Source: Chiloscyllium plagiosum
Taxonomy: Eukaryota
DNA length: 64,000 nt
Assembly: GCF_004010195.1 (NCBI RefSeq)
Contig: NC_057749.1
Coordinates: 15,927,006-15,991,005, forward strand
Direction: 5' to 3'
Part shown: in pieces, positions 7,950 through 59,258 of the stretch
Layout: every line of letters starts with the position of its first letter
Numbering within the stretch: position 1 is the first letter of the stretch
Translations under genes and position numbers: made by a program
Notes under the pieces: model-generated
What the model was told of the DNA's origin: nothing
What the model saw: only the letters and a program-made list of their open reading frames with translations
Database searches by the model: none

Positions 7950-8167
7950 AAGCTGAAAATGTGTTGCTGGAAAAGCGCAGCAAGTCAGGCAGCATCCAAG
8001 GAACAGGAGAATCAACATTTTGGGCATAAGCCCTTCTTCCTGAAGAAGGGCTTATGCCCGAAACGTCGGTTCTCCTGTTCCTTGGATGCTGCCTGACCTG
8101 CTGTGCTTTTCCAGCAACACATTTTCAGCTCTGATCTCCAGCATCTGCAGTTCTCACTTTCTCCTCG
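7950..8167. mobile_element. Palindromic Penelope-related insertion (family 4) with hammerhead motif and 12-bp TSD
   Basis: 89-bp inverted arms at 7951-8039 and 8042-8130. TSD aacaatggtatt at 7938-7949 and 8168-8179. Confidence 0.8.
8038..8069 (+). ncRNA. Minimal type I hammerhead ribozyme motif (family 4)
   Basis: CTGAAGA-a-gggc(ttat)gccc-GAAACGTC. Stem I is weak in this copy. Confidence 0.6.
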
Positions 8168-10239: not shown

Positions 10240-10455
10240 ATTTCCAATCGCAAGCTCCCACACAGGGTAATGTGACAGTGACCAAGAAATGTGTCCTTTT
10301 TTCGGTGTGAGGTTGATCGAACGATTAACATTGGCCAAGACACCAGAAGCATTCCCCTGTCCTTCCTCCAATCATCGTTCCCCAGAGGATCGTTAACACC
10401 TGCTGAGAACAGAGGCACCAGCTGCTGAGGCAGTGCAGTACTGAACCTCCAACAG
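10240..10455 (-). mobile_element. Old SINE fragment (Deu/SacSINE-like family) hosting the minisatellite
   Basis: Similar to copies at about 16010-16140, 42780-43140 and 54370-54950 (attggccaagacaccagaagcattcccctgtccttc). The family name is inferred. Confidence 0.5.
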
Positions 10456-10860
10456 CGCAGTGCAGACCCACCGGCAGTGCGGCGCTCCCTCGGTACTGAC
10501 CCTCCGACAGTGCGGCGCTCCCTCGGCACTGACCCTCCGGCAGAGCGGCGCTCCCTCGGCACTGACCCTCCGGCAGAGCGGCGCTCCCTCGGCACTGACC
10601 CTCCGGCAGTGCGGCGCTCCCTCGGCACTGACACTCCGACAGTGCGGCGCTCCCTCGGCACTGACCCTCCGGCAGAGCGGCGCTCCCTCGGCATTGACCC
10701 TCTGACAGAGCGGCGCTCCCTCGGCACTGACCCTCCGACAGTGTGCGCTCCCTCGGCACTGACCCTCTGACAGTGCGGCGCTCCCTCCACACTGGCCCTC
10801 CGACAGTGCCCACTTCCTCAGCGCTGACCCTCCCACAGTGCGGCACTGCCTCAGCACTGC
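10455..10860. repeat. 33-bp GC-rich minisatellite, about 12 units (cagtgcggcgctccctcggcactgaccctccgr)
   Basis: Directly visible; gives 11-aa periodicity in the overlapping ORF translations. Confidence 0.95.
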
Positions 10861-11299
10861 AAGGTGAGCCCTGCAGATTTGAACCTTGGGCAAGGCCAGG
10901 CTCTGCTGAGCCACCAAAGACTTCTCCCAAATAACCTTCCATATAAACGGTGATACTGTTGAAGCGTCAAATGACAGCTAACCCCCTCAGAACGTTTTTT
11001 ATTGAACCTATTTTTCCTAATCAATCTGCTCAGAAATGTCATTACACACCTCTGGCTCTATTGTTCTAGGGGTAGGCCCAGCTCTGCTGCAAGTGGGCAG
11101 GGAGTAATCTCTGGGGGTAGGACAGACAGGCTCTGATACTCTGGTCCAGGATTACTGAGAGACACCAGCCACTGGTTAATTGTGTTAGGGACAGTTTGTG
11201 AAGCAGGTTAGCAATTTAATAACGTTAACCAGGATGGCAGCCTCTGACAGAAGCTGCTGTGGAGTGGGCACTGGAATTCCGAGATTTTAGAAAATCTTA

Positions 11300-11465
11300 G
11301 TTTAAAATCTCACAACACCAGTTTATAGACCAACAGGTTTATTTGGAAGCACTAGCTCCTTCCTCAGGTAGTTGTGGAACACCTGATGAAGGAGCAGCGT
11401 TCTGAAAGCTAGTGCTTCCAAATAAACCTGTTGGACCATAGTTTGGCATTGTGTGATTTTTAACT
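11300..11465. mobile_element. Palindromic Penelope-related element (family 3)
   Basis: Arms ttaaaatctcacaacaccag...ggaagcactagct and agctagtgcttccaaataaacctgttgg...gtgtgatttttaa. Confidence 0.7.
11380..11414 (+). ncRNA. Minimal type I hammerhead ribozyme motif (family 3)
   Basis: cac-CTGATGA-a-ggagc(agc)gttct-GAAAGCTA-gtg, with stem I cac/gtg. Confidence 0.6.
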
Positions 11466-11646
11466 TGGAACAGGATCATAAGACACAGAATTTGTAGCAA
11501 AAGACTATTGTGTCATGCAACTGAAACTGAAACTTTAGAAAATCTGGCAGTGGAAAGGAGATGAGGACAGTTTCTAGGAGCCAAAGTTTGTAACTCAGGT
11601 TGAGGTTTAGGGTGTAGGTTTGCTAGCTGAGCTGTAGATTTGATAT

Positions 11647-11686
11647 CCAGACGTTTCATTACCTGGCTGGGTAACATCATCAGTGG
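11647..11686 (-). ncRNA. Minimal hammerhead ribozyme motif (family 1, minus copy)
   Basis: cca-CTGATGA-t-gttaccc(agcc)aggtaat-GAAACGTC-tgg on the minus strand. Confidence 0.7.
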
Positions 11687-11933
11687 TGACCTCCAAGTGA
11701 AGCGAAGCTGTTGTCTCCTGCTTTCTATTTATAGGTTTGTCCTTGATGGGGTTCCTGGGGTTTGTGGTGATGTCATTTCCTGTTCGTTTTCTGAGGGGTT
11801 GATAGCTTGAGGTGTTTTTATGTGCGGTTTGTATTGAAGACATTTTGGCAGTACCTGTTTTCTCAAACATTCATCAAGGACAAACCTATAAATAGAAAAC
11901 AGGAGACAACAGCTTCACTTCACTTGGAGGTCG

Positions 11934-11973
11934 CCACTGATGATGTTACCTAGCCAGGTAATGAAACGTCTGG
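11934..11973 (+). ncRNA. Minimal hammerhead ribozyme motif (family 1)
   Basis: cca-CTGATGA-t-gttacct(agcc)aggtaat-GAAACGTC-tgg; predicted cleavage after GUC at 11970. Confidence 0.75.
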
Positions 11974-12326
11974 ATATCAAACCTACAGCTCAGCAAGCAA
12001 ACCTACACCCTCAACCTGAGCTACAGACCTTCACAAACCTTGCAAAAACGTATGGGCGCATCACGCTACAACTTGCCCGAAGATGGGAAAGGAATGCCAT
12101 CCGAAAGAGTTCCACCCACAAACAACTGTACTTCCTGCATGAATGTTTGAGAAAACAGGTACTGCCAAAATGTCTTCAATACAAACCACCGATAAAAACA
12201 CCTCAAGCTATCAACCCTTCAGAAAACGAACAGGAAATGACATCACCACAAATCCCAGGAACCCCATCAAGGACAAACATATAAATAGAAAGCAGGAGAC
12301 AACAGCTTTGCTTCACTTGGAGGTCA

Positions 12327-12366
12327 CCACTGATGATGGTACCTAGCCAGGTAATGAAACATCTGG
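12327..12366 (+). ncRNA. Hammerhead motif (family 1, mutated copy)
   Basis: cca-CTGATGA-t-ggtacct(agcc)aggtaat-GAAACATC-tgg; two substitutions relative to the 11934 copy. Confidence 0.55.
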
Positions 12367-12894
12367 ATATCAAACCTACAGCTCAGCGAGCAAACCTACA
12401 CCCTAAAGTTTCTGGGAGAACATAACTGCAATACTGTGGCCACAAGCGACCCTCAACCAACTCTCTGCCCAGGGTAAATAAATAAACCACTCCCAGGATT
12501 AGACCATGCCCCCCTGCATGGCGTTCTCTGCTATGCTAACAGCCAATTGGAAGCTAAACCCGGGAATGGGTCTGAGATCCGGGCGGGAACTTGCCAGACC
12601 GGGAGCACATTCCCATTTGGAGCTCTGTGCCCCCCTCCGCACTCACCGTCTAATATCCAGAGTCAGTGGGTCAGCAAAAGCAGAGGAGGCTGCTCCTGGC
12701 CTCACCCACTCCCCACAGACTTTCCACTGGGAACCAAACCCGAAGCTGGGATGGAACAATCATTCAAAAGCACCACCCTGCTGAGCTCCCTGTACCCAGC
12801 CGGGGCTGGGGCTCTGGGACCAGGGCTCTGGGACCAGGGCACCTGCCCCTTTGTTTGTGTGAGAGGGTCAGCTCTGCTTTGGGATATCACACGA

Positions 12895-42194: not shown

Positions 42195-43538
42195 ACTCTT
42201 TCAAGGACAATTAGTGATGGGTAATAAATGTTGGCCTTGCAACATTCTATGAGTGAATAAGAAAAAAAATCACTAAACTTTGAATTTAATGAGCTCATTG
42301 CTAATGGAAAGCATTTACTTACAATTGTCATGAATATAATGTTTCTTGCAAATGAGACCGATTTCAAAGCTCCTAAAAACTTTGGTCAAATTAGTAAATT
42401 CTTTGAGAAGGGCAAAGACAATTAAAAGGTTTAAAGAGAATAATTTTTCCCAGGATCAAGGGGAAATCTGGTCTGGTAAACCAGTGGGGGAACAAAAGGT
42501 ACATTTAGATCTTTTGTGTCAGCAAATCAAGAGAGAATGAAATGTTCTTCAACAGAACAGCTGGTAGCAGGAATGCCTCATTACAGGATTAGTGAGCAAG
42601 GCAATCTTGCAGGACCATGTATAATTAAGATGTTGAGAATATGCTTGGCATTTTATGCAAAGGATTTACAAGTCAAGCCAAAGCAAATTATTACAAACTG
42701 CTGGGTGCCATGAGTGCAAACTCTAGAAGCTTATTTAATTCAAATTTTAAACTATTCCCTTAAAGAAAGACTTAAAAGACTTCCATTTATATTGTATCAT
42801 TCACAATCCAGTGAAGAACATCTCCTTTAGCAGTTAGTGTAGAATGACATCCCAAAACAGCAAAGTGCCAGTGACCAGGTAAATCTATTCTAATTAAGTT
42901 TGAGGGAACAAACATTGACCAGAATACAGAGGAGAACCTGCTATTCTTCTTGGAATCGTGCTTTTGGACTTATCACATCCATTTAATGCAGATGGGGCTT
43001 GGTTTACTTATCTGAAAGAGAGCTTCTATGACAGTATAGCACTCCTTCAAATGCTGCACTGGGAATGTCAGCCTGAGTCCTGGGCTCCAGTCTCTGGAAT
43101 AGGAATCAAATCTGTTACTTCACACTCAGAGCTACTGACAAAAACATCTAGTTCATTATTCAAGGCTGAGATGGACAGATTTCTGTTCTATTGGGGAATG
43201 AAGGGATGTGGGGAGTGGAAAAGTGCTTTTGAAACAGGAGGTTAACAATGATCACAGTGAATGGTGAATCATGCTCATGAGGGCATTCAGTCTATTTCTT
43301 ACATTACATTTTTGCTTTTAAGAATTGTGAATGAATCTGGAACACATCAGAACTTGTTTGGGGAGCAGGTTTATTTTAAAGGGCAAGCCAATGCAAATTT
43401 CCAAACACTTATAATGCAGGTCAGCTCCGAATTAAAAAGACAGAAGTCACACGACACCAGATTACAAAGTTTGTGAGAAGATTTGTAGCTCGGGTGCTCG
43501 TTGTTGTGGTTCTGTTCGCCGAGCTGGGAATTTGTGTT

Positions 43539-43578
43539 GCAGACGTTTCGTCCCCTGTCTAGGTGACATCCTCAGTGC
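43539..43578 (-). ncRNA. Minimal hammerhead ribozyme motif (family 2, minus copy)
   Basis: gca-CTGAGGA-t-gtcacct(agac)aggggac-GAAACGTC-tgc. Confidence 0.72.
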
Positions 43579-43804
43579 TTGGTAGCCTCCTGTGAAGCTA
43601 CCAAGCACTGAGGATGAGTGCCATGCCTCTAGGAATTCCCTGCCAGAGAACAGATCCACAGATTCAATCATAAGCACATCGACCTGGACACAATATACCG
43701 GCCACTGCAATGGACAGCTGGAACTGACAACCAGAAGCGGCAGATTCAAACCACTACAAATGCCGGAGGAAAGATCACAGAAGCGCTTCATAGGAGGCTC
43801 CCAA

Positions 43805-43844
43805 GCACTGAGGATGTCACCTAGACAGGGGACGAAACGTCTGC
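43805..43844 (+). ncRNA. Minimal hammerhead ribozyme motif (family 2)
   Basis: gca-CTGAGGA-t-gtcacct(agac)aggggac-GAAACGTC-tgc. Confidence 0.72.
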
Positions 43845-44837
43845 AACACAAATTCCCAGCTCGGCGAACAAAACCACAACACCAGATTACAGTCTAGTGG
43901 ATATATTTGAAATCATAAGCTATTGGAGAACAGTCTTCACCTGACAAAGGAGCAGCGCTCTGAAAACTTGTGATTTTAAATAAACCCATTGGGCTATAAC
44001 CTGGTGTCGTGTGACTTCTGACTTTGTCCAACCCAGCCCAACACTGGCACCTCCGCATCATGGCTACCATCAACACCACAAATTAAAAAGGATAAAAGGG
44101 AAGTCAGGCAACTAAATCAGGTGTGTTTGGCCAATGCCAAATTTGGACTTTAAAAGTTGTGGAAGGAAGGAGAAAGCTACAGGTCAATGGAGGTGTGGAG
44201 TTTCGTAATTCTAGGCCCTTGATAAAGAATGAGTCTGCATAATGGCACGATCTAGTAGGAGTTCAATTGTTCCAGGAGAAAGAATTGAGTATTATATGCT
44301 CCTGATATCTTGCAGTTTGGTTTCTCAATTAAAAAGAAATAGACAACAGTGAACAAAATAAAAAAAAGTGTTCCAATATACTGCCAACTCATTCAGTCAC
44401 TATAAAACAGGATGAGACAGTTTTTTATACTGTAGTTGTTTTGTATATAGAGGTCATAAGTTACACTTGAGGTGAATTTTATTAGCTCTGAGTCCTGAGC
44501 AAACTTCAGTTAACTTACACCAGGGAAAATGTTACAGGAGCTTTATAATAACTGAGATTGTTTATATGGAGGACAACAGATGGTGAAAACTGCGTTGTGG
44601 TAATATATTGCAGGCTTGAACATACTGAACAATCCATCCATATATAATTTTGAACAGCACATTTCATGATGAATACAAACGGGTCACAGAGGACAGGCAA
44701 GGCTTCCATGAACAATTTCTAACAAAGATCTGCTAATCACTGTTTTGGTAATTGTTGAGAGACAAAACATTTAGCCACAGGCAGGGAGGGGAAAATCATC
44801 CTTCTTAGTATTTGATTCAAGATTGACTTTAGGAAAT

Positions 44838-57647: not shown

Positions 57648-59258
57648 TCATGGTTGTGGGAATGTTTGCCGAGCTGGGAAGTTGATTTGCAGATGTTTTG
57701 CCCCCTGTATAGGTGACACCTTCGGTGCTTTGGAGCCTCCTGTGAAGCGCTTTGGTACTCTCTCTTCTGGAACTTATTTGCTTCAGTTCCTGCTGCTTCC
57801 AGTTCCAGTTCAGTTCTGGTCGTTCGTTATAGTAGCTGGTATATTGGGTCTAGGTCTAAGTCCTTGTCGATGGAGCTTACGGATGAATGCCATGCTTCTA
57901 GAAATTCTCTGGCTGTCCTACATTTAGCTTGTCCTATGATCATTGTGTTTTTCCAGTCAAATTTGTGCTCCTTGTCATCTGTGTATAGCTACTAGGGACA
58001 GGTGGTCGTGATGTTTAGTGGCTAGTTGGTGTTCGTGGATGCGGATTGCTAGTTGTCTGCCGGTTTGGCTAAAATAGTGTTTTGTGCATGGAATCTTCTT
58101 GCATGGAATCTTCTAAATTACGTTTGTCTTGCACATGATGGGTATAGGGTCTTTTGTCCTGGTGAGTTGTTGTCTGAGCGCGGCTGTCGGTTTATTGGCT
58201 GTCATGGATCTGAATAGTTGGAGAAGTCTGGCTGTCAGTTCCGAGACGTTTTTATATTAGGTAGAGTGATTAGTGTGTTGTGTCATGGCATGTCCATGTC
58301 ACGTTGTTTGTCTATTAGGCATCTGTGAATGAAGTTGAAGGGATATCCATTCTTGAAGACTCTGCAGGAGGTGTTCTTCTTCTTCTCTTCGCAGGTTGGG
58401 AGTGCTGCAGTGTGTTGTAGCTCTTTTGAACAGGGTTCTAATGCAGCTTCTCTTGTATACGTTTGGGTTGTTGCTGTTATAATTCAGGATCTAGTCAGCG
58501 TGCGTGGCTTTTCTGTACACTCTGGTGGAGCATTCACATCCAGGAAAGGGAATTGATTGTTGGTTTCCTCCTCTCTCATAAATCTGATACCTTGAGCATG
58601 GTGTTCTCAATTTCTGTTCTCTCAGTAATTACAAAAGTGTCATTCACACATCTGATCCAGAATTTGGATCAGATTTGTGGGAGGGTTGTTTGTTCAGTCT
58701 TTGCGTCACTGTTTCTGCTATGAGCCCAGAGAAGGTTGATCCCATAAGTGTCCCATTGATCTATTCATATATTTGGTTGTTGAATGTGAAGTGTGTTGTC
58801 AAGTACAGGTCTAATAGCTTGAGCGCGTGCCCTTGTTGATAGGTTCCCCATTGTGTTGGCTGTTCTGCTTGCCCAGGAGGTTGGCTATTGTCTCTCTGGC
58901 TAGATTTTTGTCAATTGAAGTAAATAGTTCCGTTACAATGAATGAGACCATTGCTTCGTCCTTGTCTTGATGTTGCCTAGGAATTGCTATGACGTCTATA
59001 TGGCGTGTTTGGATTGACTAATAGGATGTTTCAGTTTTTGTTGAAGTTCTTCTGCCAGTTTATGTGATGAAGCAGGAATGGAACCAAATAAATTCCAGAA
59101 GAGACAGTACCACAGCGCTTCACAGGCGGCTCCAAAACACTGAAGATGTCACCTAGACAGGGGACAAAATATCTGCAACTCAACTTCCCAGCTCAGCAAA
59201 CATACCCACAACCATGGCAACTGGCACCAGAGCTACAAATCTTTACGCAAACCTTGAA
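57648..59258 (-). mobile_element. Degenerate Penelope-like retroelement (family 2): RT and GIY-YIG endonuclease remnants with an inverted pseudo-LTR at the right end
   Basis: Minus-strand remnants DEAMVSF-VTELFTSID, INGTLMGS, WIRCVNDTFVI (RT) and HYFSQTGRQLAIRIHEHQ...REFLEAWHSS (GIY-YIG). pLTR copies at about 57648-57750 (-) and 59115-59258 (+). Confidence 0.88.

Follow-up and report, generated by a model that had tools for sequence, protein, structure and literature searches.

The 826-bp element at 11581-12406 of the window, the 64,000-nt stretch of the Chiloscyllium plagiosum genome analysed here, is read, at about an even level of confidence, as a single, old, dead-end product of the protein of an autonomous Poseidon-type Penelope-like element (PLE), in which the start of an ORF became joined to an element 3' end through a template jump on a short linear RNA. 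A previous sequence-only reading had seen in it a mini-Penelope propagating through a 393-nt unit. That claim fails, since the junction is unique to the locus, there is no array of the unit, the downstream hammerhead is damaged and the arms are ~5% diverged; in addition, the outer ends lie at reverse-transcription start sites. It is thus very probable that the insertion is a one-off, rather than one copy of a family. Alone, one decayed insertion carries little weight; its value is as a witness to the mechanism of PLE copying, which bears on the formation of pLTR tandems and on the origin of retrozyme monomers from PLEs.

The insertion has two arms, the 3' ends of which both point outward (Table 1). 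A direct repeat of 143 nt (11872-12014 and 12265-12407, 94% identity) recurs at a spacing of 393, and an inverted repeat of 275 nt joins 11606-11880 to 12133-12407 (95% identity). The whole comprises one full unit plus 143 nt, or 1.36 units, with no tandem array. The 12-bp target site duplication (TSD) recognised in the sequence-only reading is present with one mismatch, its match length being equalled by one in 1500 random position pairs. Similarly, the Penelope ORF start had correctly been described as fused to the element 3' end, with reverse transcriptase (RT) and endonuclease missing: the ORF fragment, ending in FLHECLRKQVLPKCLQYKPPIKTPQA, runs into the 3' end at 12207/12208, with one base common to both sides and about 2.1 kb of the parent ORF (RT and GIY-YIG) absent. 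Beyond this point the reading frame differs from that of the parent C-terminus, with a stop after about 114 codons. The same junction recurs in the inverted copy, as had been stated, a 24-mer matching exactly in both arms, and the TATA-like element TATAAATA is found in all three repeats, where it looks like a real promoter of the parent. A partial tandem, an inverted truncated copy and a tail of 30-40 bp at one end constitute a typical PLE insertion (excerpt of PMC8557442).

Table 1. Features of the insertion (window positions) and junctions of the other short pLTR-ORF units of the family (parent coordinates, donor to acceptor). Signed positions are parent coordinates counted from the hammerhead cut, +1 being the first base after GUC, with the single genomic copy L038 as the ruler.
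Feature	Position	Strand	Remarks
Left TSD, 12 bp	11569..11580	+	AGTTTCTAGGAG
Inverted arm	11581..11874	-	ORF-start fragment +175 to +243, junction, 3' end (pLTR, hammerhead), then a long tail reaching about +64
Inverted-arm hammerhead, minimal type I	11642..11691	-	Core and GUC intact; stem II loop-closing pair mismatched; predicted cut after 11650
TATA box, inverted arm	11726..11733	-	
Second junction copy (ORF start / 3' end)	11805..11806	-	Junction 24-mer match
Arm join	11872..11874	.	3-bp overlap (CAT); from sequence
Direct arm	11872..12406	+	Two 143-nt repeats, 393 nt apart
Upstream pLTR copy	11872..12014	+	-98 to +44; 6-bp loss near 12012
TATA box, upstream pLTR	11887..11894	+	30 nt ahead of the family's putative transcription start (-53, here 11917)
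Hammerhead 1, minimal type I	11929..11978	+	Intact by pairing; predicted cut after 11970
Parent ORF, first 89 codons	11940..12207	+	ATG 11940/11943, inside hammerhead
Junction	12207..12208	+	Parent +243 joined to -155; one shared base, none added
Element 3' end	12208..12406	+	Last endonuclease-region codons, downstream pLTR, short tail to +44
TATA box, downstream pLTR	12280..12287	+	
Hammerhead 2	12322..12371	+	Damaged: AUC in place of GUC, no palindrome, one mismatch in stem II; cut expected after 12363
Right TSD	12407..12418	+	AGTTTCTGGGAG; one mismatch to left TSD
Short unit L111	+319 to -157		
Short unit L108	+189 to -79		
Short unit L105-L107	+205 to -53		One insertion present three times, shared flank
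Short unit L109	+138 to -53		
Short unit L113	+249 to -53		
Short unit L110	+157 to -39		
Short unit L061	+222 to -39		
Short unit L040	+261 to +1		
Short unit L055	+292 to +11		

Judged by its sequence, the parent is an abundant autonomous Poseidon-type PLE. The C. plagiosum assembly searched (3.56 Gb in 101,977 contigs, with gaps) contains 5,865 matches to a 24-nt hammerhead motif at no more than one mismatch, 4,289 occurrences of an exact 16-nt hammerhead word and 483 candidates for the parent ORF start. In two single copies, L038 and L058, the sequence on either side of the junction continues into an ORF that contains the motif WVRYVDDTF (Pfam RVT_1, E 2.6e-8); the same ORF holds VIYKIPC..HYVGQTGR, a stretch without a Pfam match that is taken here to be GIY-YIG, and the window copy lacks both motifs. 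Among 29 listed rows of other loci that reach 12207, the left side of the junction runs on into more ORF-start sequence, whereas in nearly all listed rows of other loci the end of the endonuclease lies before the right side. Adding the coordinates of L058 and L038 gives a parent monomer of near 2.5 kb. The parent ORF begins inside the hammerhead, which would cut 28 nt after the ATG at 11943; in PAc, the Poseidon element of the anole, the cut is 26 nt into the ORF (PMC11167929). The Penelope/Poseidon placement would be one of domain order and of an ORF and hammerhead layout held in common with PAc.

The three hammerheads of the insertion were identified by their cores (CTGATGA..GAAAC at 11937 and 12330 on the plus strand and 11683 on the minus strand) and by a direct check of helix pairing, which bears out the earlier description of two same-strand hammerheads 393 apart. 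The accompanying remark that a third hammerhead is mutated stands in that one of them is damaged, but this is the one at 12330, the downstream member of the 393-nt pair, which would make the downstream cut of the monomer. Hammerhead 1 has a stem I of 3 bp, a 2x2 loop and 3 bp, and the motifs fit the minimal PLE hammerhead, characterized by a long stem II, an extra base before it and a palindromic 15.2-16.2 (excerpt of PMC4209133), through their 7-bp stem II, extra U and palindromic ACGU needing a dimer. The 10.1-11.1 pair is G-U, in the insertion and in most family copies, versus the usual G-C, and the motif, having no helix III of its own, is not a canonical type I hammerhead. A scan of the window with Rfam gave no match at gathering score, and minimum free energy folding of 71-nt hammerhead stretches gave no ribozyme fold (z of 0.01, -0.39 and 0.75), as expected of motifs that need a dimer. 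Minimal PLE hammerheads are poor cleavers (excerpt of PMC4209133), and insertion in vitro can proceed without their cleavage (PMC11167929). Segments L040, L054, L053 and L034 start at +1, +1, +2 and +4 after the predicted cut (4 of 48 5' ends), a hint that cleavage happened in vivo.

That the insertion is a one-off follows from searches for its junction. A genome-wide count, proposed in the sequence-only reading as a means of finding independent loci and arrays, returned two matches to the junction 24-mer at up to two mismatches in the 3.56-Gb assembly, both exact and both in this element; uniqueness to the locus is one half of the outcome which that reading had named as speaking against it. 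Likewise, among the 40 candidates scored, of 79, with a 66-nt junction query, only this locus spans the junction. A sibling junction would be visible in any copy that extended to -155; 20 of 32 unbiased family segments continue beyond -165, and the junction pattern would catch a sibling 3% diverged in 97% of cases. Neither an array nor a further copy of the 393-nt unit was present among 24 loci (25 matches) with same-strand hammerheads 76-545 nt apart; these scans require two exact words and so undercount, and 14 of the 23 other loci were read, with ten spacing loci covered as 80-nt stretches. Three of these loci with a spacing of 363-423 nt were set aside as unrelated arrangements without the junction, two being paired truncated copies with a gap and one containing about 100 nt of foreign DNA. 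At L097:804-904, about 100 nt of non-element DNA has been captured between two segments of one insertion. L086 was rejected as a carrier of the junction owing to its normal upstream sequence, and splicing or back-splicing was rejected as its source, both strands lacking GT-AG. Three DNA-type runs of related organisms gave about 13,400 pieces; of the 24 that were listed, none spans the junction, and the loose ends before 12208 are parent endonuclease sequence. A search of sequencing runs listed no RNA carrier. A poly(A) single-cell RNA library of another organism, B, yielded 103 family reads, from both strands and with no pile-up of ends; 16 loose ends carry parent sequence before 12208, these being family-level data that are uninformative on the 11581..12406 locus.

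The manner of insertion can be read from the element's ends. The PLE protein nicks and extends both target strands, reverse transcription starts inside the RNA, at two sites just into the ORF, and the RNA of the anole element needs the first 172 nt of the ORF (PMC11167929). In the present family, 3' ends are bimodal, with 38 of 103 at +40 to +46 and another 38 at +73 to +86, and pairs with their tails outward have one short and one long tail in 21 of 24 cases, as does the window insertion, whose outer ends lie at +44 and about +64 after the cut. The outer ends are thus the family's two usual reverse-transcription start sites and not the hammerhead cut; as neither corresponds to the ribozyme cut, the template was something other than a cleaved linear monomer. 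Of eight directly joined arm pairs, five are non-nested, which argues that the arms were primed separately.

All three pLTR copies of the insertion have an A at -94, found in none of 87 family segments and at 11 other places genome-wide, which indicates that all were copied from one template position; together with the shared junction, it indicates that both arms derive from one template sequence, copied more than once. Five of the 11 loci with this A were read, four having normal endonuclease upstream of -155 and one being truncated before it. The earlier view that the deleted unit was itself copied is therefore right insofar as the junction is in both arms, but the junction could have been either present beforehand or re-made during the insertion event. 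A rare C at -84 (window 11886) occurs in the upstream pLTR and, at the matching site, in the inverted arm and is absent from the downstream pLTR, a distribution that could be explained by conversion between adjacent arms or by copying at the DNA level. Differences among the three pLTR copies number 9, 7 and 7 over 143 sites, and the median identity of family segments to the downstream pLTR is 93.6%, which together date the insertion to the family's burst. A related species can be inferred to carry the same insertion from organism-A contigs that cover the right flank, with 17 and 13 differing letters in about 300, and end just inside the element tail, no listed piece spanning the insertion.

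Nine other independent short units of the same family cross from pLTR to ORF, each with a different junction (Table 1); they come from the 14 other spacing loci that were read plus two found earlier. Left out of the resulting ten-junction list were L096, where flanking DNA was duplicated locally together with the element, and L112, a duplication at microhomology within a longer copy. Donors are scattered (+138 to +319) and acceptors clustered, with five pairs within 2 nt among the ten (chance 0.005-0.01) and three junctions at one base, -53 (chance about 0.003), both values being post hoc, as the acceptors were first collected and then tested for clustering. At six loci, the other arm or the upstream copy stops at or within about 10 nt of the acceptor, as would be expected at the 5' end of a linear RNA.

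The commonest acceptor, -53, lies 30 nt after the TATA box, and transcription usually starts ~30 nt after such a box. All 92 parent-continuous segments (one divergent parent-like row having been set aside) have C or T immediately before -53, but all three junctions there have G. G also precedes -53 in ten of 13 segments that start at this position; seven of the ten represent the triplicated insertion, giving an independent count of six of eight ends. An extra G is a known mark of cap copying, although against this reading the donor could have supplied the G at two of the three junctions, and A rather than G is found in one inverted arm that ends at -53. The -53 junctions with G are likely to preserve, as fossils, both the capped start site of the family and template jumping, which suggests that the reverse transcriptase copied a short linear RNA as far as its capped 5' end and then jumped back into the ORF start. 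Since a capped end cannot belong to a circle, these units most likely arose by jumps on short linear RNAs. The set therefore suggests a route, from the 5' end of short, probably capped, pLTR transcripts back into the beginning of the ORF, and maps the family's likely start site. No description of this mini-tandem jump pattern was found in the limited body of literature searched.

Two of these units show further peculiarities. In the upstream copy of L111, a weak hairpin beside the -155 acceptor has undergone a small inversion (L111:20-55). The L109 junction is single genome-wide in C. plagiosum; in organism B, a contig with the junction of this 194-nt unit (window 12102 to 12310) has a depth of 176, versus about 10 for a flank contig, and one RNA read was found. 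The unit may have been amplified in organism B.

The window junction fits the same class, its acceptor (-155) being within 2 nt of that of L111 (-157) and its donor different. On the favoured explanation, the template would have been a short linear RNA of 399 nt over the pLTR-ORF boundary, with the hammerhead inside it and its ends at -155 and +243. Each cDNA would have begun at the tail, run off or stalled at -155 and jumped to +243 of the same RNA, where copying would have continued until one arm ended at +175 and the other at -98, the arms then being joined through the 3-bp overlap. What appears to be a deletion would in fact be a duplication by template jump, needing neither a deleted master nor hammerhead cleavage. 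Such an origin for the 12207/12208 junction has roughly an equal chance of being right or wrong, given the points that count against it. The junction was crossed by a single arm in the six comparable two-armed loci; here both arms crossed it, with no added bases, for which a covalently joined template is the simpler explanation. As -155 lies upstream of the putative start site, such an RNA could only be a piece of a read-through transcript, and the hairpin at -155 is weak (-1.8 kcal/mol). The distribution of the C at -84 is left unexplained, and no demonstration of template jumping by a PLE enzyme was found in the PLE literature examined; self-priming and template jumps have been discussed for PLEs, the jumps for a different feature (excerpt of PMC3846280).

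A joined template could be supplied by a genomic copy with a true internal deletion of 2.1 kb, transcribed as a linear partial tandem and leaving one offspring, the master having been lost or remaining unassembled. Such a source would give an identical junction in both arms, and the ORF portion it retains exceeds the initial 172 nt required for priming by the anole element (PMC11167929); old family copies often have internal deletions (L044 and L054), and an assembly of 101,977 contigs with gaps might miss the master. It is nonetheless unlikely: neither master nor sibling was found in the assembly, the loci sharing the A at -94 have normal endonuclease upstream of -155 in four of five cases read (the fifth being truncated), and under random deletion a second independent junction at -157 would be a coincidence.

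The template might instead have been a covalent circular RNA of 399 nt, copied for 1.36 turns by one arm and 0.74 by the other, and closed either at the junction or, once freed from a deleted tandem, at the hammerhead site. This would be the mechanism of the sequence-only reading, minus the propagation. A circle would account for the clean crossing of the junction by both arms and for the private A at -94 in all three pLTR copies; such templates have been proposed for PLE copying of more than a unit (excerpt of PMC4209133), and the four family 5' ends at +1 to +4 hint at cleavage in vivo. The likelihood of this is nevertheless low, as the analogous units point to linear templates with fixed 5' ends, a 393-nt circle folds no better than shuffled sequences (z -0.2, 20 of 60 shuffles being as good), the junction has no GT-AG splice signals, and the hammerheads involved are of the kind that cleaves poorly (excerpt of PMC4209133) and whose cleavage is dispensable in vitro (PMC11167929). 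A broader version of the idea, to which perhaps a one-in-five weight can be attached, would make the insertion the fossil of a 399-nt circular Penelope RNA, copied for more than one turn by one enzyme subunit and most of a turn by the other. With the nine one-off units, it would then record the birth of retrozyme monomers from PLE RNA, the enzyme jumping or rolling on short pLTR-ORF transcripts that keep its binding site, with a rare product, perhaps the 194-nt unit of organism B, then being amplified.

Less probable again is that the junction arose once, in the cDNA of the direct arm, and that the inverted arm was copied from this DNA by fold-back, switching between pLTR repeats. Self-priming has been proposed for inverted PLE structures (excerpt of PMC3846280), and this order of events explains both the identical junction and the C at -84 common to the upstream pLTR and the inverted arm. 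However, the inverted arm has about 20 nt of tail beyond the 3' end of the direct arm, at a usual family end point, such that an extra switch would be needed, and non-nested arm pairs are common in the family, as noted above. Finally, a multi-copy retrozyme-like family with a 393-nt unit, collapsed or missing in a fragmented assembly, is very improbable, even though the monomer size and 44.5% GC fit animal retrozymes, and units averaging 363 bp occur in one sampled chondrichthyan (excerpt of bioRxiv 10.64898/2026.07.22.740005), because a collapsed array normally leaves at least one copy, and none was found, and because the DNA of related organisms has parent endonuclease before 12208, with none of the 24 listed pieces spanning the junction.

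Compared with known systems, the insertion is closest to PLEs of the Penelope/Poseidon type, such as PAc of Anolis (PMC11167929; excerpt of PMC8557442), sharing the pLTR partial tandem, the inverted 5'-truncated arm, the tail at one end and the TSD, as well as the minimal hammerhead in the pLTR, the ORF starting at hammerhead stem II and two 3' end points 35-40 nt apart. It is accordingly classed as a PLE derivative by the domains of L038 and L058, the minimal pLTR hammerhead and the combination of partial tandem, inverted arm and TSD. Unlike PAc-type elements, the window copy has neither RT nor endonuclease, its hammerheads are 393 nt apart rather than about 2.5 kb, and its two arms share one non-parental junction.

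Animal non-LTR retrozymes have monomers of 150-450 nt between type I hammerheads and pLTR-related sequence (excerpts of PMC7229834 and bioRxiv 10.64898/2026.07.22.740005). The window unit is similar in its 393-nt monomer, its GC content below 50% (44.5%) and its long, 12-bp TSD, and minimal hammerhead motifs are also accepted for retrozymes in an excerpt of bioRxiv 10.64898/2026.07.22.740005, where at least two consecutive tandem units with complete hammerheads are expected. In contrast to these elements, it consists of 1.36 units with a PLE-type minimal hammerhead and a damaged downstream ribozyme, occupies a single locus where a retrozyme would form a multi-copy family of one monomer (none in the 3.56-Gb assembly), and keeps 89 ORF codons. 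In genomes of this kind, two hammerheads a few hundred bases apart arise routinely as a by-product, and such a pair alone does not make a retrozyme. The window unit also resembles MRC1 of Chlamydomonas, a non-autonomous PLE, in being short and pLTR-forming and in that it would depend on an autonomous partner; families of the MRC1 type differ in being multi-copy and active (excerpt of PMC8557442), whereas the window unit is a singleton with about 5% divergence between its own arms. The idea that retrozymes come from PLEs is already in print, animal retrozymes having been suggested to be mobilised by PLEs (excerpt of PMC7229834) and described as non-autonomous PLE derivatives, including those of one chondrichthyan (excerpt of bioRxiv 10.64898/2026.07.22.740005).

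Several other features lie in the window. About 100 bp to the left of the element, an unrelated inverted repeat with 59-nt arms (11299-11465) bears a hammerhead core at 11383 on the plus strand, and is probably the stump of another Penelope-like family. A two-arm insertion of another family, with its tails outward, occupies 43450-43891 between near-identical repeats of 17 bp, with minimal hammerheads at 43575 on the minus strand and 43808 on the plus strand, and a hammerhead-like core with a short stem II is found at 8040. An older relative of the parent is represented by decayed pieces on the minus strand at 57888-58811, with 74% identity to the parent RT-endonuclease region, and a GC-rich minisatellite with a 33-bp unit extends from 10432 to 10860.
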